A DNA stretch of 64,000 nucleotides from the sequence record NZ_CP072388.1, one strand, 5' to 3'. A program made the translations under genes and the position numbers. This DNA comes from a plasmid. Shown here piece after piece: positions 3,480-57,707 of this stretch; the stretch's first letter is position 1; each line of letters starts with the position of its first letter. Below the pieces are notes generated by a model, which was not told the DNA's origin, ran no database searches, and saw nothing but the letters and a program-made list of their open reading frames with translations.

Positions 3480-3540
3480 GGGAGCACGCGCATCGACGCC
3501 GTGTGCGAAGATCTACAACGAATGCAAAGACTGCAAAGGA

Positions 3541-4680: not shown

Positions 4681-4748
4681 CCTGTACCCCGCCAGCGCGC
4701 CCTGTCGCCGCGCAGCGCGCGCTGCGGGCCACCACCCAAGGAGCAGAC

Positions 4749-4910
4749 ATGACCCTCGACGTCAACTACCCGCCTACTCACCACCCAGCCGTAGCCGTCC
4801 CTGAGCGCCAAGACGTCGAGCAGTCCCTGCTCGCCCACCTCCCTCAGCCCACAACGCCAGCCATCGGAGACCTGACCTGGCCAGGCCTCGAGGCACCCGA
4901 GAGCCTCTAG
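4749..4910 (+). CDS. Small hypothetical protein (53 aa)
   Basis: A strong RBS (AAGGAG) lies 5 nt before the ATG. There is no similarity-based call. Confidence 0.35.
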   Translation: MTLDVNYPPTHHPAVAVPERQDVEQSLLAHLPQPTTPAIGDLTWPGLEAPESL

Positions 4911-5079
4911 CCGAACGACTGATCGACGCCCTCGCGCTCACCCGAGCACGAGGGCATCGTCGTTCCCGGACGCGGCCGATGGCCGAATGGGGGAGCGCTG
5001 AGGTGAGGTAGTGCCCGTCTTCGACCTCGGCTGGGCGCACGGAGATCGAAAGCGTCCTAGCTCGCAAGGAAGCGCACGG

Positions 5080-5322
5080 TTACCCGCGGTGCTTCTCAAC
5101 GTTGCGATACAGGTCGAGCAGTTCCTGCACGTCGCGTTCCTCCGCGCGCCGACGAACGTCCGGACCAGACACCCGGAACGCACACCAAGCGATCACGGCG
5201 ACGTAGACGAACAAGCCCGCCACGAGCACGAGCCACTCACCGCTGTCACCGACGACCTCGTCCATGCGCTCGACCGTACCGCCCCCCTCACCCAGCTCAC
5301 CGACGACCCAGGGAAGAGACAA
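5080..5322 (-). CDS. Small membrane protein (80 aa, one TM helix)
   Basis: Hydrophobic stretch LVLVAGLFVYVAVIAWCAF. Low complexity otherwise. Confidence 0.3.
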   Translation of the reverse strand: MSLPWVVGELGEGGGTVERMDEVVGDSGEWLVLVAGLFVYVAVIAWCAFRVSGPDVRRRAEERDVQELLDLYRNVEKHRG

Positions 5323-5341
5323 GTCGGCGGCCGAGACTCGT

Positions 5342-5692
5342 GGTGGAGCTCGGCAGGGTGCGTGGTGCGCCGGCCGGTGGCCGGCCCGATCTGTGGCCGC
5401 TGCGCGGCCCGGTGCTTTCCCGCGCTGCGCGCGGGGAAGTCGTCCCCTCCTGGCTCTCCATCATCGCCCGCGCGACCCTGCGCGCAACCCGCTCGACTAC
5501 GTCGCCGGCCCGTCGCCGAAACTCGTCGCCCGGCGCTCCTTCGTCGCTTCATCCGGGCGACGAGCCCCGTCGTCGGACCGTACCGCGGGTTGCACTCCGG
5601 GCCGCTTATGCGGGCGTTGATTACGGAGCCAGGAGGGGGCGAAAAACGGTCGGGACCACCCGCCACCCGCCACCTGGCAGGAAGGAGCCCCC
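5342..5692 (+). promoter_or_regulatory. Copy A of a roughly 330-bp palindromic leader element upstream of the DUF4192 gene
   Basis: Shares long blocks with 6957-7308, 11040-11351 and (diverged) 16940-17267: tggccgctgcgcggcc, cccgcgctgcgcgcgggg, gtcgtcccctcctggctctccatcatcg, gcgcgaccctgcgcgcaacc, tgattacggagccaggagggggcgaaaaacggtcgggaccacc. It ends with ggaagg followed by the start codon. Confidence 0.7.
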
Positions 5693-6727
5693 GTGGCTCA
5701 CCAGCCCGCACTCCGCGCCCGCACCGTCGCCGACGTGCTCGCCTACATCCCCGCGTGCATCGGGTACACCCCGACCGAGAGCATGGTCGTCGTCGCCCGC
5801 CGGTCGAGCACCGGCACCGTCGGCCTGGTCGCTCGCGCGGACCTGTCCGACGTCACGCCCGAGACGGCCGACATGCTCGCCGTGCACGTCGCCAACGACC
5901 GCGCCGCGTCCGCGATCATCGCCCTGTACACCGAGGACCGCGAGCAGGCCGACCGCACCCTCGCGGGCATGACCGAGGCCCTGCACGGCCAGGCCGTCGA
6001 CGTGTACGACGCCGTGCAGGTCAGCGCCGACGGGTACGTCGACCTCCACGCGCCGCACCCGGTCGTGCGCCCGCTGTCGGACGTGACCTCGAGCGTGCTC
6101 GCCGCCGAACTGGTCGCCTCCGGCGTCGCCCCGGCGCGTGACCGCGCCGGGCTGCTGCCCGGCGCGGCCGACGAGGCCGCCCAGGACCTCGCCCGCAGTG
6201 CGGCCGCCAAGCACGCCGCCAAGACGCGCGACGAGCAGACCACCCACGCGCTCGCCACGTGGCGACTCGCGCTCAGCGGCCTGGTCGACGGCCCCGCGAT
6301 CTACGGCGAACTCGCGCAGATGCTCACGCACATCAAGGTCCGTGACGCCGCCCTGCTGACCGCCGTCCCCGACGTCGACCCGGACACCGTGACCCAGGTT
6401 GTCACCGGGCAGAACCCGGACGACGACGCCGTGGGCCGCGCGATCGCCGCGATGGTGGACCCGAAGGTCGGCGTCCAGCCCGGTGAGGCCGCCGACGCCG
6501 CGCGCGATCTGCTCGCGCAGATCATCGCGCACGTGCCCACCAGCGCCGCCGCGTGGACGCTGTGGGGCTTCCTCACGTGGTGGACCGGGCAGAACGGCAT
6601 CGCGGGCGACGCCATCGACCGCGCGCTCAGCGTCGACGACGGCTATCGCCTGGCCCTGATGCTGCGGGCCGTGCTTCGGGCGGGCCTGCCGCCCGCATGG
6701 GTCGTGCGCGAGCGCGACGCGCAGTGA
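5693..6727 (+). CDS. DUF4192-family protein
   Basis: The N-terminus (LRARTVADVLAYIPACIGYTPTESMVVVA) matches the DUF4192 signature common on actinobacterial plasmids and conjugative elements. GTG start with a GGAAGGAG RBS. Confidence 0.7.
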   Translation: MAHQPALRARTVADVLAYIPACIGYTPTESMVVVARRSSTGTVGLVARADLSDVTPETADMLAVHVANDRAASAIIALYTEDREQADRTLAGMTEALHGQAVDVYDAVQVSADGYVDLHAPHPVVRPLSDVTSSVLAAELVASGVAPARDRAGLLPGAADEAAQDLARSAAAKHAAKTRDEQTTHALATWRLALSGLVDGPAIYGELAQMLTHIKVRDAALLTAVPDVDPDTVTQVVTGQNPDDDAVGRAIAAMVDPKVGVQPGEAADAARDLLAQIIAHVPTSAAAWTLWGFLTWWTGQNGIAGDAIDRALSVDDGYRLALMLRAVLRAGLPPAWVVRERDAQ

Positions 6728-6860
6728 CACCCGGCGCGCGGCCCGTGGGACAGCCCCGCGGGCCGCGCGCCCTCCGCGCGGGGTGCTGCCCGTACCGGCC
6801 CATCGAGGGCCGGCACGAGCACCGGGGAGCTGCCGCCCCCCGGACCCCCGCCTCATCCCG
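6728..6860 (+). terminator. Conserved roughly 110-bp 3' element with GC hairpins (copy 1)
   Basis: The hairpins ggcccgtgggacagccccgcgggcc and ccggcccatcgagggccgg are near-identical to 8715-8835. Confidence 0.5.
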
Positions 6861-6956
6861 ACGCGCGTCCCAGCAGACCGCACCGAACCAGCCACCAGCG
6901 CCAGGCCGGGGAGCGGCCCGTGGCCGATGGGGGAGTGCCGGTAGCGGGTGCGCCTG

Positions 6957-7307
6957 GTGGAGCTCGGCCAGGTGCGTGGTGCGCCGGCCGGTGGCCGCCC
7001 CGATTCGGTGGCCGCTGCGCGGCCTGGTGTTCTCCCGCGCTGCGCGCGGGGGAGTCGTCCCCTCCTGGCTCTCCATCATCGACCGCGCGACCCTGCGCGC
7101 AACCGACCTCGCTGCGCGTCCCGGCCCGGCGAAACTCGGCGGCCTGCGGTCGCTGCGCTCCCTGAGCTCGGCCGGCGAGCCCCGCCGTTCCGGGACCGGT
7201 CGGTTGCGCTCTGGGCCGCTTGTGCGGTCGGTGATTACGGAGCCAGGAGGGGGCGAAAAAACGGTCGGGACCACCGGCCACCCACCTGCTGGCGGGAAGG
7301 GGCACCC
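6957..7307 (+). promoter_or_regulatory. Copy B of the roughly 330-bp palindromic leader element upstream of the parB-like gene
   Basis: Near-identical to copy C and about 85% identical to copy A. Ends ...accaccggccacccacctgctggcgggaaggggcaccc followed by ATG. Confidence 0.7.
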
Positions 7308-8714
7308 ATGACCACCGACACCACGGCCACTCAGGCCGAGACGACCACCACCGCCGACGGCGCGGAGTTCGCCCACGTCGACCCGCGCACCCTGGTTGTC
7401 GGCGTGAACGTGCGCGCCGACGCCGACCTCACGCCCGCGTTCGTCGGCTCGATCAAGCAGCACGGAGTCCTGCAGCCCGTGCGCGTGCGCCGCGACGACG
7501 ACGGCACGCTCGTCGTCCTGCACGGCCAGCGCCGCACCCTGGGCGCGATCGAGGCGGGCCAGGCGACGATCCCCGCGTACATCGTGACCAGCAGCGGCGA
7601 GGGCGCGCAGCGCATCGTGGAGCAGTTGGCCGAGAACGACCATCGCGAGGACATGCGCGACAGCCACCGCACCGCCGCCTACCGTCAGCTCTCGCTCGAG
7701 TTTGGGCTGAGCGCGGCGCAGATCGCCAAGCGCACCGGCACGAAGAAGGCCGTCGTCCAGGCCACGCTCACCGTGGCCGAGTCCCAGGTCGCCGCCGCCG
7801 TGCAGGCCAAGTACGACCTGCCGCTGGATGTGGCCGCCGCCCTGGCGGAGTTCGACGACGACACTGAGACCGTCAAGAACCTGACCGCCGTCGCGGTCAA
7901 GGAGCCTGGCCGCTTCGCCCACGAGGCTCAGCGCGCGCGTGACGAGCGCCAGCGCGCCGCCGAGGTCGCCGCCGCCCGCGAGACCCTGACCGCACAGAAC
8001 GTGACCGAGGTCGAGCGCCCCGACTACAACGACGCCAAGGTCCAGCACCTGGCTCGACTCAAGCCCACCAACGACGACCCGAACGGCACCGACCTGACCC
8101 CCGAGGCGCACGCCGAGTGCCCCGGTCACGCGGCGTACATCGCCGCGCAGTGGAACCGCGTCGAGATCGTCTACGTCTGCACGAACTGGCGCACCCACGG
8201 CCACGCCGACCGCTACGGCACCACCAGCACCCAGCGCACCGGACCGATGAGCGAGGCCGAGAAGGCCGAGCGCAAGCAGGTCATCGAGAACAACAAGGCG
8301 TGGAAGTCCGCCGAGACCGTGCGCCGGACCTGGCTCGCGGAGTTCGCCCAGCGCAAGACCGCCCCCAAGGGCGCCGCCGAGTACATCGCCCACGCGATCG
8401 CCACCGAAACCCACACCCTGCGACGCGCAGGAGAGCGCGGACACACACTGGCCAGCGAATGGCTCGGCATCAAGACCGAGACCAGCCCGTACCCGACCGG
8501 ACGCGGCCTGGCCGACCTCATCGCCAAGGCCACCCCCAGCCGCGCCCAGCACATCGCGCTCGTCCTCGCCCTCGCCGCACGCGAGGCCGAGACCGGCGTG
8601 CAGACCTGGCGCCGCGAAGGCGCCGAACAGACCTACCTCAGCGCACTCGAAACCTGGGGCTACACCCTCAGCGACGTCGAGCAGATCGCCCGAGGCCAGG
8701 CGCCCACCGAGTAG
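7308..8714 (+). CDS. ParB/Sulfiredoxin-like nuclease-domain protein (469 aa)
   Basis: The N-terminal block (GVLQPVRVRRDDDGTLVVLHGQRRTLGAIEAG) resembles the ParB N-terminal domain with its GxRR motif. The long C-terminal region is unique. Confidence 0.75.
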   Translation: MTTDTTATQAETTTTADGAEFAHVDPRTLVVGVNVRADADLTPAFVGSIKQHGVLQPVRVRRDDDGTLVVLHGQRRTLGAIEAGQATIPAYIVTSSGEGAQRIVEQLAENDHREDMRDSHRTAAYRQLSLEFGLSAAQIAKRTGTKKAVVQATLTVAESQVAAAVQAKYDLPLDVAAALAEFDDDTETVKNLTAVAVKEPGRFAHEAQRARDERQRAAEVAAARETLTAQNVTEVERPDYNDAKVQHLARLKPTNDDPNGTDLTPEAHAECPGHAAYIAAQWNRVEIVYVCTNWRTHGHADRYGTTSTQRTGPMSEAEKAERKQVIENNKAWKSAETVRRTWLAEFAQRKTAPKGAAEYIAHAIATETHTLRRAGERGHTLASEWLGIKTETSPYPTGRGLADLIAKATPSRAQHIALVLALAAREAETGVQTWRREGAEQTYLSALETWGYTLSDVEQIARGQAPTE

Positions 8715-8835
8715 CACCCAGCGCGGTCCGTGGGACAGACCCGCGGGCCGCGCACCCGGGTGCGCGCGCTGCCTGCGCCGGCCCATCGAGGGCCGGCGCA
8801 GACACCGGGGAGCTGCCGCCCCCCGAACCCCCGCC
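8715..8835 (+). terminator. Conserved roughly 110-bp 3' element with GC hairpins (copy 2)
   Basis: ggtccgtgggacagacccgcgggccgcgc...ccggcccatcgagggccggcgcagacaccggggagctgccgccccccgaacccccgcctc matches 6728-6860. Confidence 0.5.
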
Positions 8836-9004
8836 TCGGCATGAGTACCGGATCAGAAGAACGCCACCGTGGCCGACGGTCGAGATTTCAACGAGGAACT
8901 TCCGAGCCTACGTGCGGCTGCCGTGATGACCAGGTGCGATTGGCCTCGAGGTGGCCGGATTCCGCGCTTTCATCGTCTGGGTCGGTTGCATAGAACCCGA
9001 ACGC

Positions 9005-10354
9005 TCATGGCGACGAGAGGGTCGCGACTCGCCAGTTGAGGCTATTTGCGACTTCGTAGACGGAGGCTGCGAATCCGTACGGGCTGCATCCGCGGCCGTT
9101 CGGCTGCGCAGCAGGGACCCCGTTGCAGTTGTCCAGGACCCACTCCTCGTCTTCGAACCAGTAGATCCCCGAGATGACGCCCAGAGCGCGTGGTCGGAAG
9201 CCCGCGTCGACGGAAACCAAGTCGAACACGGGGCCACCGCTGTCTCCGCTGCCCCACAGCGGTTCGCCGAGTTGGTTGACGATACGAGCGACCTTTGCGC
9301 TGGTGATGTCGGTGTCCTCATACTCGACGAAATAGTCGGTTTCGACGACCTGCCCACCGCAGGTCATGCCGGAGTACGATCCCGAGCTGCAGACCTCTTG
9401 TCCGAGAAGATAGCCAGTGGAGACTGCCTCCACGCCGACGTACTGGGTGCTCGTGTACTCGCCGATGTACATGTAGGGGTTCGACCAGTCCTGCGTCAGG
9501 ACGGCGCCGTCGAGGCTTGTGAGCCGGTGCGTCATGTTGCCGTAGTGGTAGGCCATGAGGCCGCCTTCAGACATGGCGGTACGGACCCATTGGGAGTTGA
9601 TCGGACCGCAGTGGGCGGCGGTGACCATCCCGTAGTCGCCGGTGACCTTGTGTCGGGTGGCGAAAGCGGTGCTGCAGTTGCCACGGAGGTAGCCGTCCTG
9701 GAACCGGCTTATCCGGGCGCCGCCCAAGTGCAGGTTGTCGGACAGTCGGGCGGGGTTGTTCTGGACGTTCTCGTTGACGCGCACCGGCACGCCGGCGATC
9801 TCGCTCAGCTCGTTGGCTACTTCGTCGCGATCGGGGCTCGCGCTGCGGCGTGCACCGGTTGACGTGCTCTGGTCAAGGTCCACATAGACGCCAGAGGCGT
9901 CGGCGTTGACGCCCGCGCCGGCGACCTTTGCACCGCCCACCTCGGTGCCGGGAAGACTTGCCGCGGCCCGGCGGAGGTCTCCAGGGAGGTACGGGGCGGC
10001 AGTAACCGCCAAGTTCTCCGACGGCGTCAGGTCAGCTGGGACGTCCCCGTACCACGCGACAGACAGGTGGGACCGGTCGTCCGAGATGGCGAGCGTGCCG
10101 AGGCGGTCGTCGGAGCCGTAGCGCTTCCTGATCTCGTCGGCCTTGGCGGCCACAACCTCGGGAATGGCGGGCGTGTGAAGGTGCTGCGCCAGGTCAGACG
10201 GGTCGAGGACTGACCGTTGATCGACGGGGCCCTGTACATCGGGCTCAGGCGGCGGGACGGGCGAGTTCGTCGCGTGTGCAGCGATCCCCCCGCACAGAGA
10301 GAGCGAGACGGCGGCGACGAGCGCATAGCTGCCGCGTTGCAGCCTGGACTTCAT
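9005..10354 (-). CDS. Secreted trypsin/alpha-lytic-protease-like S1 serine protease with pro-region
   Basis: N-terminal signal peptide. Catalytic motifs TAAHCG and GDSGGP with disulfide Cys pairs. The C-terminal domain is typical of streptogrisin-like proteases. Confidence 0.85.
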   Translation of the reverse strand: MKSRLQRGSYALVAAVSLSLCGGIAAHATNSPVPPPEPDVQGPVDQRSVLDPSDLAQHLHTPAIPEVVAAKADEIRKRYGSDDRLGTLAISDDRSHLSVAWYGDVPADLTPSENLAVTAAPYLPGDLRRAAASLPGTEVGGAKVAGAGVNADASGVYVDLDQSTSTGARRSASPDRDEVANELSEIAGVPVRVNENVQNNPARLSDNLHLGGARISRFQDGYLRGNCSTAFATRHKVTGDYGMVTAAHCGPINSQWVRTAMSEGGLMAYHYGNMTHRLTSLDGAVLTQDWSNPYMYIGEYTSTQYVGVEAVSTGYLLGQEVCSSGSYSGMTCGGQVVETDYFVEYEDTDITSAKVARIVNQLGEPLWGSGDSGGPVFDLVSVDAGFRPRALGVISGIYWFEDEEWVLDNCNGVPAAQPNGRGCSPYGFAASVYEVANSLNWRVATLSSP

Positions 10355-10362
10355 GTTTCCCC

Positions 10363-10815
10363 CTACGTTGTCGTATGCGGTACCGCTTTGCCATTAACGA
10401 GAACCTCGACAGCGTCGTCGACGGAATTCTCGACCGGGATCTCCACAACGTGACTAAAAGGAACGCTATCCGCGGTGCAGCTCATGTTGTTGCTGCGCGC
10501 CATCTCGAGAGCGAGAGTTGTCGATCCTTGCCAAGCGATCCCCACCGGGATCGCTGGGCAGCTGGAACTACCCCAGGACGTGACCGTGAGCGTCGGCGGC
10601 TCGGCGGTCGGGTCGATGACTACATTCGACTGCCCCTCCGGCGGTGGCCTGAGCGTCGAGTCCTCGGTGGGAAACGAGTCGACAGCGATCGAGACAGCGG
10701 GCACGCCAGTCCTGGATGCGGGAGGCGGGTCACTAGAGGGCGCCGCACAGCCGGTGATGACGCCAACGACGAGCAACCCAGTGAAAAGCACCGGCACGTA
10801 GGCGGCTCGCCTCAT
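10363..10815 (-). CDS. Lipoprotein (150 aa) encoded just upstream of the protease on the same strand
   Basis: Signal peptide with lipobox LVVGVITGC. Four Cys residues. Separated from the protease gene by only 8 bp. Confidence 0.55.
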   Translation of the reverse strand: MRRAAYVPVLFTGLLVVGVITGCAAPSSDPPPASRTGVPAVSIAVDSFPTEDSTLRPPPEGQSNVVIDPTAEPPTLTVTSWGSSSCPAIPVGIAWQGSTTLALEMARSNNMSCTADSVPFSHVVEIPVENSVDDAVEVLVNGKAVPHTTT

Positions 10816-11039
10816 TGACTATCCCCCAAAGTCAAGGTGGTGGAAGGAGAGTGCCATAAGTTCGGATGGTCGACAAGGGTCGGGCGCGCGGTCCGTGCTC
10901 GGCCGCGAACGAGTAAGGGGCACGTTGAGCGTCTGAGCGTGGCGAGACTCAGCCGCGTCGCTCGCCGAAGATCAGGGTGCTCGAGGGCGCGTTCTTGCGC
11001 GGTGCAGGGGCACGGCAGATCCCTGCGCCTTGAGGCCCG

Positions 11040-11351
11040 CTGCGCGGGCTGTTCGTGCCGCTGCGCGGCCCGGTGTTGTCCCGCGCTGCGCGCGGGGGAG
11101 TCGTCCCCTCCTGGCTCTCCATCATCGACCGCGCGACCCTGCGCGCAACCGACCTCGCTGCGCGTCCCGGCCCGGCGAAACTCGGCGGCCTGCGGTCGCT
11201 GCGCTCCCTGAGCTCGGCCGGCGAGCCCCGCCGTTCCGGGACCGGTCGGTTGCGCTCTGGGCCGCTTGTGCGGTCGGTGATTACGGAGCCAGGAGGGGGC
11301 GAAAAACGGTCGGGACCACCGGCCACCCACCTGCTGGCGGGAAGGGTCACC
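11040..11351 (+). promoter_or_regulatory. Copy C of the roughly 330-bp palindromic leader element
   Basis: Near-identical to copy B. Internal long-range complementarity (cccctcctggctc pairs with gagccaggagggg; gcgcaaccgacc pairs with ggtcggttgcgc) predicts a long imperfect hairpin. Confidence 0.7.
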
Positions 11352-11741
11352 ATGACCACCAACTCCGCGCACGTCTTCGGTGAGCCGATCCACGTCTACA
11401 CCCGCGCCCGGGCCCTGGCCGACGGCGTCCTGGTCGACGCCGGGCCGCTGGCCGGTGAGGCAGGGTTCCGCTGGCCCGTCGCGCTCACCCAGGCGGCTCA
11501 CGCCGAGGCTGTCACCTGGAACCCCGAGCACGGCCCCGGGCAGGACGAGACCGGCCGACTGTGGGACGTGCTCTGGCTCGCCACCATCGCGGCCCGCGCG
11601 GGCCGCTCCCGGTTTACCGTGGCCCGCGTCCCCAATCTCCCGGGCCAGGACGAGGCCCAGGGCCTCGACCTCGTGCTCCACGTCGGCCCCGGCGACACGG
11701 GCGAACCGGTCGTGACGATCAGCCTCCCCGGCGAGGACTGA
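11352..11741 (+). CDS. Hypothetical small acidic protein (129 aa)
   Basis: First ORF after leader copy C. GGAAGG RBS. No recognised domain. Confidence 0.5.
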   Translation: MTTNSAHVFGEPIHVYTRARALADGVLVDAGPLAGEAGFRWPVALTQAAHAEAVTWNPEHGPGQDETGRLWDVLWLATIAARAGRSRFTVARVPNLPGQDEAQGLDLVLHVGPGDTGEPVVTISLPGED

Positions 11742-11816
11742 CCGCCACCGCGGCGGGCCAGCAGCGGCCCGCCGCGGCCCCACGCCCGACCGGCCCCGGC
11801 CCACGAAGGGACCACC

Positions 11817-12149
11817 ATGACCACCGAGCACCAGACCATGCGCCAGCGCGTGGCCGCCATCAACTCCCACCCCGCCGAGCTCGAGCCCGAGCAGCGCGCC
11901 GCGCTCGAGGAGCGCGTCCGTCGCCGCCTGCCCGGCTACCCCGACCAGTACGTCATCCAGTACGCGAACGGCGATGCCGATTTCGCGCTCTGGCTCGCCC
12001 TGGTCGACGTCCGGCTCATGCGCCGAATCTGGCTCACCCACCGCGCTATCGCGGACCGCCCCTGGCGCGAGGACTACGACGCGGGCCGCGACCCCATCGA
12101 CGCCGCCGACGAGGCGGCCGAGGAGGAAGCCGGCCACCACTTCGACTGA
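11817..12149 (+). CDS. Hypothetical protein with acidic C-terminus (110 aa)
   Basis: ATG follows a GAAGGGACCACC RBS region. Followed by a GC hairpin (gcgggccgggcgcaagaacgcccggcccgc). Confidence 0.5.
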   Translation: MTTEHQTMRQRVAAINSHPAELEPEQRAALEERVRRRLPGYPDQYVIQYANGDADFALWLALVDVRLMRRIWLTHRAIADRPWREDYDAGRDPIDAADEAAEEEAGHHFD

Positions 12150-12190
12150 ACCACCAGCGGGCCGGGCGCAAGAACGCCCGGCCCGCCCCT

Positions 12191-12235
12191 CACCTGAGGT
12201 ATACATACAGATGCGCTAGATGTATACTTGAGGTG
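12191..12235. promoter_or_regulatory. AT-rich imperfect palindrome (cacctgaggtatacat...atgtatacttgaggtg)
   Basis: 16-bp arms with 2 mismatches around a 13-bp spacer. An AT-rich island in GC-rich DNA just upstream of the 12300 ORF. Confidence 0.5.
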
Positions 12236-12299
12236 TTGGAAGGGCACGCAACGGCCGGAGACCACCGGCCACCCGGCACCAACGCAAAGGAGGGCCCTC

Positions 12300-12581
12300 G
12301 TGGCTCAGCACACCATCGCCGCCCAGGACGCGAGCCGCGCGTCGTTCGAGGCCAGCATCGAGGCCGCCAAGCGCCACGCGCGGGAGACCGGCGAGGACCT
12401 GTACGACGTGCTGGATCGGATGGACCGCAACGACGCGAGCGTCGTCCCGGCGATCCACCCCCTGATCAGCGCCGACAAGGCCCACCTGGCCCAGCGCATG
12501 CGCGGCGCCCTGTGGATCGATCCGACCGGACGCCGCACCTACACCCCGCCCGCGCGCACCCTGGGCGAGCTGCTCGCCTGA
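12300..12581 (+). CDS. Hypothetical protein (93 aa)
   Basis: GTG start preceded by AAAGGAGGG. The accaccggccaccc box lies upstream. Confidence 0.4.
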   Translation: MAQHTIAAQDASRASFEASIEAAKRHARETGEDLYDVLDRMDRNDASVVPAIHPLISADKAHLAQRMRGALWIDPTGRRTYTPPARTLGELLA

Positions 12582-12661
12582 CGTGCCCGGTGGGTCGGGA
12601 AGGAGACTTCCCGGCCCACCGGCTGGCCCACCCAGAACCGCACGCGAGCAGGAGAGCGCCC

Positions 12662-13603
12662 ATGCTGACCATCACCCACACCCGCGAGGCTGGAACCCTT
12701 ATCGACGGGACCGAGCGCGGCGACGGAACGAACGTCATCCTCAAGGCCAACGGCTGGCGGTTCAGCCGCAGCCTGGCCGGTTGGTTCATCCCGCAGTCGC
12801 GGGACCGCGCCGTCAAGGCGTGGAAGATCAACGCGACCGCGGCCGCGCTGCGCGAGGCCGGCCACACGGTCGAGGTCCACGTCGACGACACCGCCCGCCC
12901 GGCCGCCGTCGTCGAGGCCGACAAGATCGCCCGACAGGCCGACCGCACCGCGGCCCTGGCCGCCAAGGCTGACCGCAAGACCGCCGCCGCCGATGCCGCC
13001 TACGCCCGGCACGAGGCCGCCGTCGAGCGGCTGCCCGAGGGAGGGGAGCCGATCAAGATCGGCCACCACTCCGAGAAGCGCCACCGCCGCGACACCGAGC
13101 GCGCATGGTCCACGCTCGGCACCGCCGTCCACGCCCAGCGCGACGCCGAGGACGCCCAGGAGGCAGCGGCGACCGCCGCCGCGACGACCGGCGCCCGGTA
13201 CAACCCCGTCACCGTCGGGAACAGGATCGACCGGCTGGCCGCACAGATCCGCAAGTACGAGCGCGAGCTGGTCGCGCCGGTCTACGACCTCGACACCGGA
13301 TACCGGCCCGCGACCGAGCACGAGCAGGCCCGGCGCCGTCGACGCCTCGAGCCGGCCATCGCCGAGACCCGCGACAACCTCGCGCACTGGCAGGACGTGC
13401 GCGCCCAGCAGATCGCCGACGGCACCGTCACCGCATACGGGCCGCACAACGTCGCCAAGGGCGACGAGGTCAAGATCGGCCACTGGTGGCGACGCGTCGC
13501 CCGCGTCAACGCCAAGTCCGTGAGCGTCGAGACCGACTACTCCTGGACCGACCGCGCCCCGTGGCACGAGGTCACCGACCACCGCCCGGCCCAGGCCACG
13601 TGA
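12662..13603 (+). CDS. DUF3560-family protein
   Basis: The N-terminus MLTITHTREAGTLIDGTERGDGTNVILK matches the DUF3560 signature seen on actinobacterial plasmids. Followed by a hairpin (gggcgggccgcacccggcccgccc). Confidence 0.7.
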   Translation: MLTITHTREAGTLIDGTERGDGTNVILKANGWRFSRSLAGWFIPQSRDRAVKAWKINATAAALREAGHTVEVHVDDTARPAAVVEADKIARQADRTAALAAKADRKTAAADAAYARHEAAVERLPEGGEPIKIGHHSEKRHRRDTERAWSTLGTAVHAQRDAEDAQEAAATAAATTGARYNPVTVGNRIDRLAAQIRKYERELVAPVYDLDTGYRPATEHEQARRRRRLEPAIAETRDNLAHWQDVRAQQIADGTVTAYGPHNVAKGDEVKIGHWWRRVARVNAKSVSVETDYSWTDRAPWHEVTDHRPAQAT

Positions 13604-13671
13604 CCGACAGCCAGGGCGGGCCGCACCCGGCCCGCCCTGGCCCAGCCCGTACCGACACCAGGAGAACCGCC

Positions 13672-14535
13672 ATGACCACCGCCACCGCACCCCGAACCCG
13701 TAGGCTCACCCGTGCACGCCGCGCCGCCGTGGGGGACTTGCCGCCCCCCACACCCCCCGCCTCCGGCGCGGCTCACCACCGCCTGCAACCCCGAGGTGCC
13801 CTTCCCATGACCACCCGCCGCGTCGACGCGCTGCCCGACGAGCACGCCGGCCCGATCCTCGAGCTGCTCGAGCGCGTGCGCGCAGCCGCGACCGCGCCTG
13901 ACGGCGATGGGGGAGCGTGGGCCGCGGCCGAAGCGGGGCAAGCCCGGGTCCGCACCGGGTACAAGGCCGCCCGCCGCACCCTGTCCGCCGGGCAGTACGC
14001 CGCGCACACCCTGCGCCTGCTCGCCCTGACCCAGCCCGAGGCCGACCGCGAACCGTGGACCAACGCCCTGGCCCACGCCGGCGCACCGATCGGCTCTTGG
14101 GACTGGGACGAGCGCATGCAAGGCGCGCTCGACCTGCGCCGCACCTTCAAGGACCTGCCCGAGCCGCTGCCCGAGACCGTGCGCTCGGTCCGGCTCGTGT
14201 CCGCCTGGCTCACCCACGCCAGCGGCACCGGGCTCGTGCCTGTCACCGCCCGCCTCGCCGCCCACGTCCTCGAGCTCGAGCCCGACGGCGACGTCCTCGC
14301 CGCCGCCTGGTACGCCACCCACGGCACCCGGCTCCTGGCCGAGCTCACTGCCAACGGCACACCCACCAGCGGAGCGCCCGACCTCGACGAAGCCCACCAA
14401 CGCGCACTCCTGCGCACCGCCGTGCGCGGCCTCTATAGCGCGCAGCTGCTCACCAAGGTCGACCTCGCCGCCCGCGCCGGCGTCACACGGCGCACCCTCG
14501 ACGCTTGGACGGCCAGTGCAGAGGCTCAGACGTAG
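13672..14535 (+). CDS. Hypothetical protein with C-terminal HTH-like segment
   Basis: AGGAGAA RBS before the ATG. The C-terminus (LTKVDLAARAGVTRRTLDAWTA) is HTH-like. An alternative start lies at 13807. Confidence 0.45.
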   Translation: MTTATAPRTRRLTRARRAAVGDLPPPTPPASGAAHHRLQPRGALPMTTRRVDALPDEHAGPILELLERVRAAATAPDGDGGAWAAAEAGQARVRTGYKAARRTLSAGQYAAHTLRLLALTQPEADREPWTNALAHAGAPIGSWDWDERMQGALDLRRTFKDLPEPLPETVRSVRLVSAWLTHASGTGLVPVTARLAAHVLELEPDGDVLAAAWYATHGTRLLAELTANGTPTSGAPDLDEAHQRALLRTAVRGLYSAQLLTKVDLAARAGVTRRTLDAWTASAEAQT

Positions 14536-15584
14536 ATCGCGAGGGGAACCACGCGGAACGACTCGCCGCTGACCCGAGAACTGAACGTCAGGTCGACTTG
14601 GCTCGCGTCGAAAGATCCCTCGTTCGGTTCAAGGTTGTCGGCGGCGGTCGCGATGAACTTGGCCAACGCATCGACGCCGTCGGCCCCGATGCGGGACAGG
14701 AGCTTGTTGCGCCGAAGGATGGGCGCGTCGGCCTCCAGGCTGGACGTAACCTTGCCTAAGACGGTGAACTCGCCATCCAGGATGCGATCCTCATCATCGA
14801 CCGTGAAATGTCCGGTGTCACAGATGGTGACCGCAGTGACCGTCGCGTCGCCAGAGGCGATCGCGCCGTAGTACTCCCGTGTCGTCGTGCTGCGGAAGTC
14901 GGTCTTGACGGCCCGTGTGATCGCCCCGGCCAGTTCTCCTCGCGCCCCGGCCTCAAGGTCGATTCTGAGGGCCGCCTTCTGTACGTCCTCGTGGGTCCCG
15001 TAACCCTCGAACAGCTTCGCCTCGGACAGCTTGTGCTGGGTTCGTGTGATCGTCTCCACGAGCTCGGGCGTTACAACGTCCATGAGCGTCGTCACCTCGC
15101 TGGGGCGGAACCACGCTCGGTACTCAACGAAATCGCCCGCCTTGAGGTGTCGTGCATCGTCAAGGTTGGCGACCGTCCGCAGCACCTCAGCGTCGCGCAG
15201 TGCCTTGCGCACGAGGTTGAGGTAGTACGCCTGCGAGTAGACGAAGTTCTGCACCGCACGCGTACTCGTCGCACTTGCTCCCTCGTGGCCTCGCAGGTAG
15301 CTGTAGTCCGCTTGTGCCTTCACCTTGGCGATCAAGGGCGTATTGGCCTCACCGGCAACCTGAACCCCGGCATTGTGCTCGCTCTTCTGCCCTGTCGATG
15401 ACGTACCTTCGTTCTCGAACGTCTCGTCGACCACCAAGGGACGCTCGAAGAACTGCTGGACCACGCCGGCTACGTGCTCACCGTGCTGATAGATCGTCAC
15501 GGTAGGCGCAAGTACTTGGTCCTTGACCTGCTCTTCTGGGGACAGCGGCTCCGTCGTCATGAAGCATGACGATTCCATAAGCAC
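14526..15584 (-). CDS. Orphan protein of unknown function (352 aa) in a lower-GC patch
   Basis: Clean ORF in a roughly 60% GC segment versus about 70% in the flanks. No recognisable motifs. Opposite strand to its neighbours. Confidence 0.55.
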   Translation of the reverse strand: MLMESSCFMTTEPLSPEEQVKDQVLAPTVTIYQHGEHVAGVVQQFFERPLVVDETFENEGTSSTGQKSEHNAGVQVAGEANTPLIAKVKAQADYSYLRGHEGASATSTRAVQNFVYSQAYYLNLVRKALRDAEVLRTVANLDDARHLKAGDFVEYRAWFRPSEVTTLMDVVTPELVETITRTQHKLSEAKLFEGYGTHEDVQKAALRIDLEAGARGELAGAITRAVKTDFRSTTTREYYGAIASGDATVTAVTICDTGHFTVDDEDRILDGEFTVLGKVTSSLEADAPILRRNKLLSRIGADGVDALAKFIATAADNLEPNEGSFDASQVDLTFSSRVSGESFRVVPLAIYV

Positions 15585-15658
15585 GGCGGGGACTTGGCGT
15601 TTGTGGTCTCCGTGTCGCAGCCGGCCGTTGCGCCTGAATAGGCTCCGCGTCTCGTCAA

Positions 15659-15958
15659 TCAGAAGCTGCGCCGGGGGCGTCCTGGGCCACGCCGGCGGTC
15701 TTCAATCCCTTCGAGGCTTGCAGCAGTCCAGACTGGGCCGCCGTTGAGCTGGCCCTCAGCCTTGGGGAGCCAGTCTGCGCCGCGGTGGCGCGCTGAACGC
15801 AGGGACGCGTGGGCCATGCCGAGCCGTTGGGCCAGACGAGCCACGTCGTACAGCCCGCCCGGCCCGGGACCCGGATCGCGCGGGCCGTCCGGCCGAGATT
15901 CCTTGCTCACCCGGCCACGGTAACAGCACGCTCTCGTTCTGCTTCTGTTAAACTGCAA
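15659..15958 (-). CDS. Small excisionase/MerR-like HTH DNA-binding protein
   Basis: HTH-like segment LYDVARLAQRLGMAHASLRSARHRG. The true start is probably a GTG near 15910. Confidence 0.45.
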   Translation of the reverse strand: MQFNRSRTRACCYRGRVSKESRPDGPRDPGPGPGGLYDVARLAQRLGMAHASLRSARHRGADWLPKAEGQLNGGPVWTAASLEGIEDRRRGPGRPRRSF

Positions 15959-15975
15959 CGCGTCCGTTCTGATTG

Positions 15976-16938
15976 ATGGAGGTCGTCGTGTCCCACGTTG
16001 AGCCGGTGAACCGCGCTGCTGCTGGCCCCTCGGTCCGGATCCGCGACGCGGTCCGGCGCCGGTTCGATCGAGGCTCGGAGGAGGGTCAGGCTGAGCCGGG
16101 GGAGGGCTACGAGTCGTTCCCGCGCTGGCCGGTGGTTGCTCTCGCTGCAGGCGCGTTCGTCGCGATCTGGGGTGGGTGGGTCGACTTGGGCCGGATGGCC
16201 GGCTTCGGTCCGGTGAACCTGTTGCCCGGGATCATGGACCTGACGGTGAACCTCGCGATCACCCTGCCGCTGGGCATGGAGGTCTACGCTGCGTTCGCGC
16301 TCGGCGTGTGGCTCACGCACCGCAACGTCCGTCCGGCCGCGCGGACGTTCGCGGGATGGTCGGTCCTGGCCTCGCTGGTGATCGGCGCCGCGGGCCAGAT
16401 CACCTATCACCTGCTCCACGCCGCTGGCATCGAACGGGCGCCCTGGCAGGTCGTGGTCGGTGTCGCGTGCGTGCCGGTCGCCGTCATGGGTATGGGCGCC
16501 GCGCTGGCCCACCTGCTGGGCGTGCGCCGGCCCCGGCCGGCCCTGCCTGTGGTCGAGGAAACCGCGACGGCCGAGGCGAGCACGTCGACGCCCTCGACCG
16601 CTCCCGCGAGCATGACGGAGTCGGCGCCGATCGCGGAGCTGTCTCCGGTTCCGGCCGTCGTCGAGCCGGCCGTCGAGCCGGTCGTCGTCGTGGCGAGCCA
16701 GGTGCAGGACGAGCCTGGCCAGGAGCTGGACCCGGCCGCCATGACCACGGAGCAGCGCGACGCGTTCATCCTCGAGCTCGCGCGCGACGCTCGCTCCGAG
16801 CGTGACATCGCGGCGCGCGTGCCGTGGTCGCGGTCCACCGTGAACCGCGTCCTGCGCAAGCACGACGTCGTGCTGAACCCGCCGAACCAGGCTCGGCTGG
16901 AGTGGGCCACCGACCGTGGGGAGGCGGCTCTGGCGTGA
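15976..16938 (+). CDS. Integral membrane protein with C-terminal HTH (DUF2637-like, Spd-like)
   Basis: Four to five TM helices followed by an Ala/Pro-rich linker and a C-terminal HTH (RSTVNRVLRKH). The architecture is common on actinomycete conjugative elements. Confidence 0.5.
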   Translation: MEVVVSHVEPVNRAAAGPSVRIRDAVRRRFDRGSEEGQAEPGEGYESFPRWPVVALAAGAFVAIWGGWVDLGRMAGFGPVNLLPGIMDLTVNLAITLPLGMEVYAAFALGVWLTHRNVRPAARTFAGWSVLASLVIGAAGQITYHLLHAAGIERAPWQVVVGVACVPVAVMGMGAALAHLLGVRRPRPALPVVEETATAEASTSTPSTAPASMTESAPIAELSPVPAVVEPAVEPVVVVASQVQDEPGQELDPAAMTTEQRDAFILELARDARSERDIAARVPWSRSTVNRVLRKHDVVLNPPNQARLEWATDRGEAALA

Positions 16939-16939
16939 A

Positions 16940-17267
16940 CCGCGGGTGCGCCGCGACAGGTCGCCGCGCACAACACGTCGCGGCCCTGCGGGCCGCGGCT
17001 GGAGCATCATCTGTCTTCGGTCCGTCCCTGGCTGCGAGTGTGGCCGGCCGTCCCCGGGCGCAAGCCGGCTCCGCTGCGCTGCGGCCCGCCCATCCGCGAC
17101 GTTCTCGGCTGCGCTCCTTCGTCGCTGAGCCCGCCGAGAACGTCGCGCCCGCGCGGGCGTCCCGACTCGCTCGCGGTGCTCGCGCCCTGCGGGTGCGTCC
17201 GGGGACGGCTTCCAGCCAACGCTCTGGCTGCAGGGACGGTCCGAAAAACGACGTGGGGGAGGGCATC
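16940..17267 (+). promoter_or_regulatory. Diverged fourth copy of the roughly 330-bp leader element upstream of nrdH and the Toprim gene
   Basis: Shares gctccttcgtcgct, GC palindromes and the gaaaaacgacgtggggg...ATG tail with copies A-C. Similar length. Confidence 0.45.
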
Positions 17268-17519
17268 ATGACCAGCCAGGGGATCGAGGTCACCGTGTAC
17301 AGCAAGCCGGCGTGCGTGCAGTGCGACGCGACGTACCGCGCTCTGGACAAGAAGGGGATCGCGTACACCGTGGTGGACATCAGCGCCGACGCCCTCGCGC
17401 TCGAGCGGGTGCGTGCCCTGGGGCACCTCCAGGCCCCGGTCGTCGTCGCCGGTGACGTGTCGTGGTCCGGGTTTCGGCCCGACCAGGTCAATGCCCTCGC
17501 GGCCCGTCAGGAGGTCTGA
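17268..17519 (+). CDS. nrdH: NrdH-like glutaredoxin-fold redoxin
   Basis: 84 aa with a CVQC redox motif near the N-terminus (VTVYSKPACVQCDATY), the typical NrdH/glutaredoxin pattern. Confidence 0.7.
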   Translation: MTSQGIEVTVYSKPACVQCDATYRALDKKGIAYTVVDISADALALERVRALGHLQAPVVVAGDVSWSGFRPDQVNALAARQEV

Positions 17520-17520
17520 C

Positions 17521-18546
17521 ATGAGCGACGAGTTGACCCGTGAGCGCACGGTGCAGATCAACGCCGCGGCGTGGGAGTTCTGGCGCTTCCATGCGAACAG
17601 TGCTGACGACTGGACCCGGGCCTACCTCGCCGCACGCGGGCTGCGCGGCCTGCAGGCCGGGTACGCGCCCGAGGGGTGGGCTCGGCTGGTGGGCCGCATG
17701 CGCGGCCGCGGGTTCAGCGCGGACGAGATCGTGGCCGCCGGCCTCGCGTTCCGCACCGAATCCGGCTCGGTAGGGGACGTCTTCCGCGACCGCCTGGTGC
17801 TGGCGTACCGCGACGAGCACGGCGACATCGTCGGGTTCACCGCGCGTCGCAACCCCGCGCTCGACGACGACGGCGATGCGCCGGCGAAGTACCTCAACAC
17901 GACCGCCACGCCCGCGTTCGACAAGAGCCGGGACCTGTACGGCCTCGACCCCGCGGCCGCGCGGAACATCCGTGCCGGCGCGCGCGTCGCGGTCGTCGAG
18001 GGCGCCCTGGACGCCGAGGCCATCCGCCGCACCGGGACCGCCGTGGTCGCCGTGTCCGGGTGCGGCACCGCGGTCACCGCGACGCACCTCGAGCGGCTGC
18101 GCGCGATCCACCCGGACGCCGTCGCGCTGGCCGTGTTCGCGTTCGACGCCGACGCCGCTGGCCGCGGTGCCGCGTCGCGCGTGTGGGACCTGCTCAACGA
18201 CGTCGAGGCCGGCACCGCCGGCGCCCTGGTGCTGCCCGAAGGGACCGACCCCGCGCAACTCGTCCAGGACGGCCACGGGCACGCCCTCGCCGAGCGGCTC
18301 GCGCAGCCGACCAGCCTCGCGAGCGTCGTCGTCGACGCCGAGCTCGCACGCCACGACCTGACGATCCCCGAGGGTCGCGTCGCCGGACTGCGCGCCGCGG
18401 CCGCACGCGTCGCACGCATCCCACAGGCGCCCCTGGCACGCGTCGGCGCCCACCTGCACGCACGCCTGGCGCCGCACACCGACCTGGGCACGATCGCCGG
18501 CGAGCTCGCCGTCGCGCATGCAGGCGCGGCGCGCGGGGGCGCGTGA
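17521..18546 (+). CDS. Toprim-domain protein (DnaG-primase-like C-terminal fold)
   Basis: VVEGALDAEA and AFDADAAG acidic motifs characteristic of Toprim. Sits 2 bp after nrdH. Confidence 0.65.
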   Translation: MSDELTRERTVQINAAAWEFWRFHANSADDWTRAYLAARGLRGLQAGYAPEGWARLVGRMRGRGFSADEIVAAGLAFRTESGSVGDVFRDRLVLAYRDEHGDIVGFTARRNPALDDDGDAPAKYLNTTATPAFDKSRDLYGLDPAAARNIRAGARVAVVEGALDAEAIRRTGTAVVAVSGCGTAVTATHLERLRAIHPDAVALAVFAFDADAAGRGAASRVWDLLNDVEAGTAGALVLPEGTDPAQLVQDGHGHALAERLAQPTSLASVVVDAELARHDLTIPEGRVAGLRAAAARVARIPQAPLARVGAHLHARLAPHTDLGTIAGELAVAHAGAARGGA

Positions 18547-19575: not shown

Positions 19576-19646
19576 CACCGCTCGGCGCGGTGCGCGGTGA
19601 GTACAACGAGGGGCCCCGCGCAGTGCGCGGGGCCCCTCACTTCGTC

Positions 19647-19958
19647 TCAGTTGGACTCGGACGCCACAGGCTCATCGGACCGAGCGGAGCGCGCCGTCGT
19701 GCTCGACCGACGTCGCGGCGTGCGCGCCTTGCGCTCGGGATCGGGCAAGCCAAGCTTGCGCAGCTCGTCGGCGGTCCACCCGTCGCTGAGCGCGGCCGCG
19801 TACGCCCGTGCATGCTCGCGCTCGGCGGTCTGTACCTGCGTGCGTAGATCCGCCTCGGCCTGGGCTGCGCGCACCAGTGCACGCACCGACCGGATCCGCT
19901 CGTCGAGGAGTTCGCGGGCCTTCGCCTCGGCAACCTCGGGGTCTAGTTCTCGCGCCAT
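19647..19958 (-). CDS. Hypothetical helical protein (103 aa)
   Basis: Clean ORF on the opposite strand between the fic gene and the oriT region. No motifs. Confidence 0.35.
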   Translation of the reverse strand: MARELDPEVAEAKARELLDERIRSVRALVRAAQAEADLRTQVQTAEREHARAYAAALSDGWTADELRKLGLPDPERKARTPRRRSSTTARSARSDEPVASESN

Positions 19959-19959: not shown

Positions 19960-20196
19960 CCGCGATGCTACAAACCCCACGACGGCGCGCGCCAGCGCGA
20001 CGCATCTGGGCGCCGTCGCAGACACGACACCCGCGCCGAGGGAACGTTGAGCGCACAGGCCTCGGCGGAGCAAGCTATACACTTACGTGCCGTAAGTGGC
20101 TTGATGGCTCGACGCTGCGCGTCGGCGATGGCACACTGGGCGTGTGGTCCCCGCTGGAGCGGGGTCGCTGCGCTGGGCGAACAGGAGCAAGACGAC
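19960..20196 (+). other. Candidate oriT region upstream of the mobC and relaxase genes
   Basis: Non-coding 237 bp with a perfect inverted repeat cacttacg-tgc-cgtaagtg (20080-20098) and a second repeat gcgacgcatctgggcgccgtcgc. The position is typical of MobC/relaxase oriTs. Confidence 0.45.
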
Positions 20197-24436: not shown

Positions 24437-24529
24437 ACCGGTGCGCGGGCGGTCGCCGCCCGCGCACCGTCCGTCGCGTGACGCGATCGCCCGTAGCAGC
24501 ACTGCAGGTGGCGGAAACCGACCGTTTCT

Positions 24530-57674: not shown

Positions 57675-57707
57675 CCGCAGCGGTGGTGGTTCGCCAAGGC
57701 CGAGGAC

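Follow-up and report, generated by a model that had tools for sequence, protein, structure and literature searches.

Zygotic induction from single-strand promoters has been documented so far for enterobacterial IncF/IncI-type plasmids only, in which a plasmid's survival of host defences during the initial minutes after entry depends on it. Three mutually unrelated classes of hairpin promoter stand before six leading operons in F and pESBL (PMC9849209, PMC12672017). The class 1 elements, namely Frpo1 and Frpo2 of F and the single-strand initiation (ssi) elements ssi1-3 of ColIb-P9/pESBL, are on as single-stranded DNA (ssDNA) and off as double-stranded DNA (dsDNA) (PMC9849209), and the transcripts of hairpin promoters can prime DNA synthesis (10.64898/2026.01.09.698686). 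In another class, ssp2, a GC-rich (68.6%) stem blocks complementary-strand synthesis, prolonging early expression (PMC12672017, PMC13478746, 10.64898/2026.01.09.698686). A search of a literature collection returned no paper joining 'ssDNA promoter' and Actinobacteria, and a large survey of leading regions makes no mention of the phylum. Here, four structured elements (A to D) are described in a 64,000-nt plasmid stretch of record NZ_CP072388.1 (the window; position 1 is its first letter). Judging from sequence, we are inclined to regard them as a new class of Frpo-like single-strand promoter modules, which probably also prime or delay complementary-strand synthesis.

A preliminary description of the sequence had listed the four copies, and comparison within the window found all of them at the same places. 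The order of parts is shared: two to three small GC hairpins, a long imperfect hairpin, an A-run, a conserved leader, and the Shine-Dalgarno sequence (SD) with the start codon. The leader between the A-run and the start codon is ~45 nt long in A-C and 18 nt in D. Copies resembling A-C are referred to as type 1 and those resembling D as type 2. Over the boundaries first given, B and C are 94% identical (99% across the 250-nt core), A is 84% identical to B and 82% to C, and D is ~60% identical to each, so that the >85% identity proposed for A-C holds for B and C and fails for A. The complementarity of the 5' and 3' arms was borne out by folding, and the hairpin measures ~210 nt (A-C) or ~230 nt (D) instead of the ~250 nt first estimated. 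Of the GC palindromes placed between the arms, cccgcgctgcgcgcggg actually lies directly 5' of the 5' arm (e.g., 7034-7050), while other small hairpins do lie between the arms. All four copies end 7 nt from the start codon, behind the motif GGAAGG in A-C and behind GGGGGAGGG in D. As had been noted, each copy serves a distinct gene, which is DUF4192 for A, a ParB-like gene for B, DUF6573 for C, and nrdH followed by a DnaG-like primase gene for D. The parts of the elements are the following.

5341-5692, minus strand: element A (type 1), whole module
5395-5409, minus strand: A mini-hairpin GGCCGC-TGC-GCGGCC, which reads C(GCA)G on the minus strand
5419-5435, minus strand: A mini-hairpin CCCGCGC-TGC-GCGCGGG, which reads C(GCA)G on the minus strand
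5439-5647, minus strand: A long imperfect hairpin, reaching from the beginning of the 5' arm as far as the A-run
5460-5465, minus strand: A -10-like box GATGAT (ATCATC on the plus strand)
5482-5487, minus strand: A -35-like box TTGCGC (GCGCAA on the plus strand)
5648-5692, plus strand: A conserved leader, with the SD GGAAGG at 5680-5685
6955-7307, minus strand: element B (type 1), whole module
7010-7024, minus strand: B mini-hairpin C(GCA)G
7034-7050, minus strand: B mini-hairpin C(GCA)G
7054-7262, minus strand: B long imperfect hairpin, DNA fold -81 kcal/mol (minus strand) and -84 kcal/mol (plus strand)
7075-7080, minus strand: B -10-like box GATGAT, with the A at -11 in a 1x1 mismatch, then a GGA internal loop
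7097-7102, minus strand: B -35-like box TTGCGC, fully paired
7148-7159, minus strand: B apex motif GGTCGCTGCGCT (GCGCAGC mini-hairpin on the minus strand), common to oriT block 2 (see below)
7263-7307, plus strand: B conserved leader, with the SD GGAAGG at 7295-7300
11035-11351, minus strand: element C (type 1), whole module, with a 5' flank unlike those of A and B
11100-11307, minus strand: C long hairpin, with the -10-like box at 11121-11126, the -35-like box at 11143-11148 and the apex motif at 11194-11205
16946-17267, minus strand: element D (type 2), whole module
16980-16996, minus strand: D mini-hairpin GCGGCCC-TGC-GGGCCGC
17019-17249, minus strand: D long hairpin, with TTGCGC at 17058-17063, N15, and CACACT at 17037-17042

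Folding with RNA and with DNA parameters gave a stable long hairpin in all four copies. The fold z-scores of the window copies range from -4.5 to -8.0 as RNA and from -5.4 to -6.7 as DNA, with no shuffle equally stable, and the DNA folds of the window copies and their relatives reach -81 to -90 kcal/mol for 236-258 nt, with z from -5.4 to -6.8. When a 250-nt DNA fold was slid along the minus strand, a homology-free scan corrected for GC content, the four elements ranked 2nd, 3rd, 5th and 6th among 1276 windows. Covariation was scored for the basal 40 pairs of the hairpin in an alignment of 27 type-1 sequences. Pairing holds in 95.8% of their cells, where shuffles give 85.0 +/- 0.6 and slid partners 40-57%, and compensatory change is seen in 22 of the 40, against 10.5 +/- 1.6 in shuffles. 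The long hairpin is under selection and is maintained through compensatory change. Its apical third is variable and modular, and versions of the apex are common to copies on different plasmids. No Rfam family matched anywhere in the window at the gathering score; at E <= 5, the region 5000-18000 gave one chance match of 27 nt outside the elements, and the phage collection searched held no match to the element.

The stem contains a promoter-like motif on the minus strand, TTGCGC-N15/16-GAnnAT in type 1 and TTGCGC-N15-CACACT in D. Read from apex to base, the type-1 3' arm of this strand presents a fully paired TTG(C/T)(G/A)N, 15-16 nt, and G-A-n-n-A-T, followed by GGA in a 3x4 internal loop, 10-13 GC pairs and an A/T run. 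This is the direction that a polymerase would need in order to copy the other arm into the gene, and the motif faces the gene only with the hairpin formed; as dsDNA it points away from it. A relaxed search (TTGNNN-N15-19-NANNNT) of both strands of the hairpins found this site only. The GCAA/TTGC block is unchanged in 27/27 type-1 copies, and the neighbouring pairs covary freely. Alignment columns -12, -11, -8 and -7 are invariant as well, in contrast to the variable -10 and -9. In none of the same 27 copies does the A at -11 have a Watson-Crick partner, its opposite base on the minus strand being C in 22 and A in 5, which on the plus strand reads as T.G in 22 and T.T in 5. The geometry recurs in the Cellulosimicrobium, Paraoerskovia, Xylanimonas and type-2 copies. 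The motif scores 6-7/12, and F Frpo2 scores below it in the relaxed search. A promoter on the minus-strand 5' arm, reading toward the apex, was considered and rejected, as neither TTG nor NANNNT is present there. As a separate observation, GCCAGG at the end of the 3' arm is complementary to CCTGGC before the SD, with a nested GGTCGG/CCGGCC hairpin (5625-5685, 7239-7300, 11285-11345). This GCCAGG/CCUGGC leader hairpin appears in ~17/26 single-sequence folds, is not recovered by RNAalifold on the MAFFT alignment, and would fold only in transcripts starting inside the element.

The small hairpins carry a strand-specific loop. Among 180 perfect-stem triloop hairpins in 32 copies (see below), C(GNA)G triloops number 84 on the minus strand (GCA 63, GAA 10, GTA 10, GGA 1) and 0 on the plus strand, where base composition would lead to a bias of <=1.5-fold. 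The rest of the window served as a control and gave 10 (minus) versus 9 (plus) among 437 triloop hairpins. Loop bases 1 and 3 are constant, whereas the middle base varies and so do the stems, and this pattern is the signature of the sheared G.A mini-hairpin d(C-GNA-G). The d(GNA) loop closed by C-G is an exceptionally stable, nuclease-resistant DNA motif that SSB (the single-stranded DNA-binding protein) binds poorly, and d(C-GNA-G) is known from the G4/St-1/alpha3 primase origins, RSF1010 ssiA and the N4 single-strand promoters (PMC13037366, PMC3201870). The strand-specific mini-hairpins favour the template (minus) strand in DNA form. With DNA parameters and the hairpin alone, the minus strand is better by 7.3 kcal/mol, against 4.3 from composition, in 29/31 copies, and the residual advantage of ~3 kcal/mol lends weak support to the same strand. 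With RNA parameters it is better by 8.0 kcal/mol, against 5.3 in shuffles; assignment of the strand by RNA minimum free energy was rejected, the difference being mostly composition. The RNAalifold consensus reaches -63 kcal/mol with 48 pairs on the minus strand and -46 kcal/mol with 38 pairs on the plus strand.

Searches for further copies, as the preliminary description had suggested, yielded 32 non-redundant copies of two subtypes on plasmids of 10-68 kb and plasmid-sized contigs, mostly from Micrococcales. By blastn and nhmmer, pTL2A and a Paraoerskovia plasmid have four copies each and a Xylanimonas plasmid two; motifs alone mark one more Xylanimonas copy, which stands before its glutaredoxin gene. 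Scanning one genome per species for the pattern brought in Cellulosimicrobium, Isoptericola, Puerhibacterium, Actinotalea, Aeromicrobium and one metagenome-assembled genome labelled Mycobacterium, all on contigs of 10-65 kb. The start of an open reading frame (ORF) is abutted in the same orientation in 32/32 copies, the genes served being 8 DUF4192, 7 ParB-like, 7 DUF6573, 5 NrdH and 5 small ORFs, with nrdH always downstream of type 2. Occurrence in chromosomes had been named as evidence that would count against a link to conjugation, and no copy in a chromosomal setting or in inverted orientation was seen among those collected. A metagenome scan gave ~13 more full copies, of which 12/13 are >=93% identical to another copy and which add little diversity. 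In the four complete or near-complete replicons, the orientation of the elements is that of the relaxase gene, and they lie ~3-17 kb from the origin of transfer (oriT) region on the side opposite the relaxase.

The same polarity is seen in the window, where all copies have one orientation and point to an oriT-like region, as was first reported, and to mobC and the relaxase. The window has a GC content of ~70%, and co-oriented plus-strand genes lie in its first 22 kb. Two conserved oriT-like blocks lie upstream of mobC, each an inverted repeat with conserved flanks. The features of this part are given in order.

960-1736, plus strand: ParA gene
1736-2347, plus strand: ribbon-helix-helix (RHH) protein gene
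2400-2820: CATGAATG repeat array, between the RHH gene and the AAA ATPase gene
between the CATGAATG array and element A, plus strand: AAA ATPase gene
5693-6727, plus strand: DUF4192 gene behind element A, start codon GTG at 5693
7308-8714, plus strand: ParB_N/HTH_ParB gene behind element B, start codon ATG at 7308
11352-11741, plus strand: DUF6573 gene behind element C
17268-17519, plus strand: NrdH-type glutaredoxin gene behind element D
17521-18546, plus strand: DnaG-like primase gene, following nrdH and element D
after the primase gene and before the divergent gene at 19647-19958, plus strand: Fic gene
19647-19958, minus strand: small divergent gene (103 aa, no Pfam match), adjoining the oriT region
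20066-20098: oriT candidate block 1, CGGAGCAAGCTATA + CACTTA-N7-TAAGTG, conserved in four plasmids
20149-20178: oriT candidate block 2, CCCCGC-N4-GCGGGG-TCGCTGCGCTGGGC, conserved in four plasmids and carrying the element-apex 12-mer
20197-20595, plus strand: mobC-like gene, co-oriented with all four elements
20592-22136, plus strand: MobA/VirD2-type relaxase gene, co-oriented with all four elements

The inverted repeat of block 1 is also readable as CACTTAG-N5-CTAAGTG, beside CGGAGCAAGCTATA. If the nick site (nic) lay 3' of this repeat on the minus strand, the minus strand would be transferred and the element block would enter first, which is the usual arrangement, the mob genes entering last. 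In F, the leading genes, oriT and tra genes are all co-oriented, and the order in the window (parA, elements, Fic, divergent gene, oriT-like region, mobC, relaxase) mirrors that of F. The block in relatives also includes ArdC and SSB genes. The F-like gene order together with ArdC and SSB in the block of relatives favours the minus strand, which by this analogy would be the transferred strand. The closest record is pTL2A, a conjugative-type plasmid of Cellulosimicrobium cellulans, in which the equivalent block stands beside type IV secretion system (T4SS) genes but with a MobF relaxase. As minor observations in this region, the gene at 19647-19958 has the same position as the opposite-strand SLT gene beside oriT in F, and a GC hairpin (19611-19637) lies between it and the Fic gene.

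The apex and the oriT region share a motif. The apex 10-mer TCGCTGCGCT forms the GCGCAGC mini-hairpin on the minus strand, and in whole relatives (32-68 kb) it is almost confined to oriT block 2 and the apexes of the elements, with the strand the same throughout. In the window, (GG)TCGCTGCGCT is found at 7148-7159, 11194-11205 and 20163-20174; among relatives, one carries it at 11741, another at 27336 and 16628, and the Cellulomonas C5510 plasmid at 17054. This sharing suggests a common single-strand ligand, such as a primase or a relaxosome protein.

In the mechanism proposed here, each element would be an expression and establishment module that is active while the plasmid is single-stranded in its new host. 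The minus strand, which is the template of all genes from parA to the relaxase gene, would enter the recipient 5' end first from the oriT just upstream of mobC, and upon entry the minus strand of each module would fold into a 210-230-nt hairpin. The folded 3' arm would then show a paired TTGCGC, 15-16 nt, G-A-n-n-A-T, the GGA loop, a 10-13-bp GC stem and an A/T run, and with the A at -11 held unpaired it might act as a pre-opened promoter mimic for the host RNA polymerase. The polymerase would transcribe the other arm and continue through the leader (~45 nt; 18 nt in type 2) and the SD into the downstream gene. Once the complementary strand had been made, the hairpin would be lost, the boxes would point away from the gene and expression would stop. 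The C(GNA)G mini-hairpins would most likely hold the fold open against SSB, slow the complementary-strand polymerase, or prime for the plasmid's DnaG-like primase. What the sequences themselves show are the repeats, the covarying hairpin, the strand bias of the loops, where the motif lies and how well it is conserved, and the neighbouring genes; which strand is transferred, how RNA polymerase uses it and from which start, and what the mini-hairpins do are what we infer here.

This proposal resembles class 1 in several respects. Both comprise several near-identical copies of ~300 nt upstream of co-oriented leading operons that point to oriT, both have a long imperfect hairpin, with a distance from its base to the start codon of 48 nt in F Frpo2, 45 nt in A-C and 18 nt in D, and both count a ParB-like gene among the operons served, with SSB present in a relative of the window plasmid. 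The logic of being on as ssDNA and off as dsDNA (PMC9849209) is proposed for the elements by analogy. The differences are the Actinomycetota host and DNA of ~75% GC, the boxes TTGCGC/GAnnAT, which are not near-consensus, and the C(GNA)G mini-hairpins that flank and cap the elements, whereas the leading region of F is unbiased in these loops (3 vs 3). The comparison of geometry with Frpo rests on the descriptions in the papers, as the published F Frpo boxes could not be located from sequence alone. The ssp2 class is an example of how unrelated hairpin sequences can serve one job; it differs from the elements in having been found in Enterobacterales and in having mapped transcription starts. By analogy with ssp2, it is plausible that the very stable stems and the mini-hairpins of the elements block complementary-strand synthesis.

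The preliminary description had offered Frpo-like promoters or ssi sites as candidates. The covarying hairpin, the co-oriented genes leading toward mobC, the relaxase and the oriT-like region, and the loop count of 84 vs 0 support this idea, which is the best supported of the explanations; the lack of any sequence relation to Frpo/ssi and the non-canonical boxes make that support partial. A number of points weigh against it. A hidden Markov model of the element finds nothing in the F leading region (E <= 10), and F Frpo1 and Frpo2 give by blastn only chance matches of 16-18 nt in the window. No canonical -10 is present, with G at -12, the -35 matches at 3/6 positions, and in type 2 (CACACT) the unpaired base stands at -10, not -11. 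A strict sigma-70 scan of the elements found nothing; it equally found nothing in the validated F Frpo2 and is uninformative for that reason. A nic 3' of the block 2 repeat on the plus strand would mean that the plus strand is transferred, and sequence fits either of the two candidate nic regions, which are on opposite strands. T4SS genes are absent from the 64-kb window and known only from relatives. Composition accounts for most of the energy by which the minus strand is favoured, and copy B folds nearly equally on both strands as DNA (-81 kcal/mol on the minus strand, -84 on the plus strand). Strand assignment by wobble counts was rejected as circular, since it gives 98 G.T/10 A.C when derived from the plus strand and 84/12 when derived from the minus strand. 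The copies are phylogenetically related and homogenised within plasmids, which makes independent events fewer than the counts imply. Many relatives have, on the plus strand and ahead of the big hairpin, a GC hairpin with TTTTCTT behind it, possibly as a simple RNA terminator.

Among the other explanations, one is that the elements are priming signals only, of the ssi or single-strand origin (sso) type, in which the folded minus strand recruits a DnaG-like primase, or RNA polymerase as a primase, with no role in gene expression. The C(GNA)G mini-hairpins, so strongly strand-specific in the elements, are a hallmark of the G4/St-1/alpha3 primase origins and RSF1010 ssiA, and the elements share with such signals (G4/St-1/alpha3 origins; RSF1010 ssiA/ssiB) the GNA/GNNA mini-hairpins closed by C-G on the template strand, the poor SSB binding of this mini-hairpin type, and a plasmid-encoded primase (PMC13037366). 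Frpo transcripts also prime (10.64898/2026.01.09.698686). The DnaG-like primase is encoded behind element D, TCGCTGCGCT is almost confined to the element apexes and the oriT region on one strand, and if the minus strand is transferred, the oriT-region site near its 3' end could prime nearly the whole strand. The primase signals, however, are 40-140 nt long, not fused to genes and without promoter boxes. The sso of rolling-circle plasmids and integrative and conjugative elements (ICEs) is an imperfect palindrome active on one strand, which provides a single-strand promoter for the host RNA polymerase to make a primer. Unlike the elements, it is single-copy, does not stand before genes and is tied to rolling-circle replication. 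A site for priming alone has no use for a conserved leader and SD joined to it at a constant spacing from the start codon and in one orientation, as in 32/32 copies, nor for a -35/-10-like pair that faces the gene. As a complete account it is unlikely; it is compatible with promoter function and is therefore a partial reading more than a true rival.

An RNA element on the plus strand is a further explanation, in which the element would be a long structured leader or intercistronic hairpin in a polycistronic mRNA and serve as a terminator, stabiliser, RNase III site or translational switch. The RNA of this strand does fold strongly (z -4.5 to -8), the consensus derived from it has conserved U.G pairs at four positions, CCUCC in the 5' arm and GGAGG in the 3' arm lie beside the real SD, CCUGGC immediately ahead of the SD offers the 3' arm another pairing partner, and in many relatives the big stem comes after a hairpin with a U-run. 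The loops tell otherwise: 0/180 triloops of the favoured type are on the plus strand, which places loop selection on the other strand, and the C(UNC)G loops of the plus strand have no known RNA stability, the cUNCGg register fitting few of them. Nor does the stem itself suit an RNA, as the consensus fold of the minus strand is at least as good, the position that is never Watson-Crick paired, and is sometimes U.U, cannot be put down to wobble tolerance, the invariant TTG/CAA within a covarying helix has no RNA rationale, and a near-perfect duplex of ~100 bp is unusual for a bacterial leader. With no Rfam family match even at E <= 5 and no promoter seen upstream in the strict sigma-70 scan, an RNA element is distinctly unlikely.

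The module might also be a double-stranded promoter or operator cassette shut off by a plasmid repressor, with zygotic induction of the Reg576 or pKM101 CUP/ArdK type and the palindromes as operators. The Reg576 operators of p576 and the CUP repeats of pKM101 are likewise conserved repeats before establishment operons with transient expression after transfer, and repeated regions act in this way in p576 and are proposed to do so in pKM101 (PMC6294495). The element has several perfect palindromes and a sequence-conserved apex, and the plasmid encodes RHH, ParB-like and helix-turn-helix proteins. Those systems, however, act as dsDNA with a repressor and need no long covarying hairpin, whereas the present elements conserve a structure and have strand-specific loops. 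Their small palindromes covary in the stems and hold the asymmetric centres in one orientation (TNC on the plus strand, 84 vs 0), the opposite of a symmetric operator, compensatory change over ~100 bp of stem would be superfluous for an operator, and no rightward promoter-like motif exists in the double-stranded form, which leaves this explanation improbable. Finally, a selfish palindromic repeat, like a miniature inverted-repeat transposable element or a repetitive extragenic palindrome, spread intergenically without plasmid function, is barely credible: the multi-copy imperfect palindrome of 200-350 nt and the greater likeness of copies within a plasmid than of orthologous copies between plasmids would fit it, but across genera the element keeps its place and direction before the same gene families, RBS (ribosome-binding site) included, no copy was found outside plasmid-sized contigs or in opposite orientation, no transposase is associated, and homogenisation is also known for F Frpo1 and Frpo2 (PMC9849209).

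Two further plasmids bear on the wider occurrence of single-strand modules. In p110066 of Cellulomonas sp. C5510, gaps of 400-700 nt precede the ParB, ArdC, DUF6573 and nrdH genes. These gaps (3494-4003, 5604-6105, 6929-7325, 8224-8639, 9378-10099) hold mostly a different repeat family, before ParB, hypothetical, ArdC and DUF6573 genes, which has no nhmmer similarity to the element. This family forms long hairpins and has C(GNA)G loops on the template strand only (10 vs 0); no TTG...-10 motif was seen in it. The nrdH gap folds too, with template-strand mini-hairpins. In the plasmid of Nocardia sp. NBC_01388, repeats of ~320 nt within 4555-4947 and 6396-6836, before DUF4192 and hypothetical genes, are distant relatives of the element. 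They have the same architecture, the GGA loop, an apex of 19 nt identical to window copies B and C, the more canonical TTGCGC-N16-CAAAAT with -11 unpaired, and C(GNA)G loops at 5 vs 0. An ssb gene lies nearby, behind another gap of 406 nt. Neither such a module nor a loop bias was found in a 300-kb Rhodococcus plasmid bearing DUF6573, so the feature is not universal wherever DUF6573 occurs.

A broader proposal can be put forward tentatively. Conjugative plasmids of Actinomycetota with a relaxase and T4SS might carry composite entry modules on the transferred strand, in each of which a hairpin promoter, its -11 base pre-flipped, would be joined to sequence-specific C(GNA)G mini-hairpins. One of the latter would be the GCGCAGC apex (AGCGCAGCGACC, minus strand). 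It is found again in the oriT region, at what would be a site close to the transferred strand's 3' end, and its recognition by a relaxosome protein or by the DnaG-like primase that the plasmid encodes might couple early transcription, priming and delayed complementary-strand synthesis. At least two sequence-unrelated families (the Cellulosimicrobium type with its distant Nocardia relative, and the Cellulomonas C5510 type) would then be the first single-strand promoter/ssi systems outside Proteobacteria.

Should the elements prove to be single-strand promoters, the strategy would be either ancient or convergent across very different transcription machineries, and the DUF4192, DUF6573 and ParB-like proteins would become candidates for early establishment or anti-defence functions in Actinomycetota. 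Strand-specific C(GNA)G mini-hairpins with a long hairpin abutting a start codon would make a simple sequence signature, by which the leading region and the transferred strand could be recognised in high-GC plasmids not yet characterised. The modules would also be compact parts for transient expression from conjugatively delivered DNA.

Several other features of the window were observed. The region 2400-2820 consists of dense CATGAATG/CATGCATGA repeats, direct and inverted, which form the window's most stable fold after GC correction and are probably a centromere or iterons. The 4th place in the fold-stability scan is taken by 24308-24569, where a GC hairpin and a near-perfect 23+23-nt palindrome (24523-24569) lie behind a small ORF rich in Lys and Ser (24308-24438). 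A second repeat, with 74% identity over 116 nt, is located 3' of the DUF4192 and ParB-like genes (6766-6881 and 8749-8864). It contains the hairpin CCGGCCCATCGAGGGCCGG, which is found also 5' of a Puerhibacterium element copy, and could act as a terminator or form another strand-specific structure. Cargo makes up the right half of the window (34836-37076, 40099-42063, 45812-47215, 55309-58805), with two P-type ATPase paralogues that also appear as a repeat, a Mu-type transposase and two tyrosine recombinases. By tblastn against the plasmid collection, DUF6573 is present on 257 plasmids, 142 of them typed conjugative, from hosts that include Xanthomonas (129), Streptomyces (29), Rhodococcus, Nocardia, Burkholderia and others, which marks it as a widespread gene of the plasmid establishment type.

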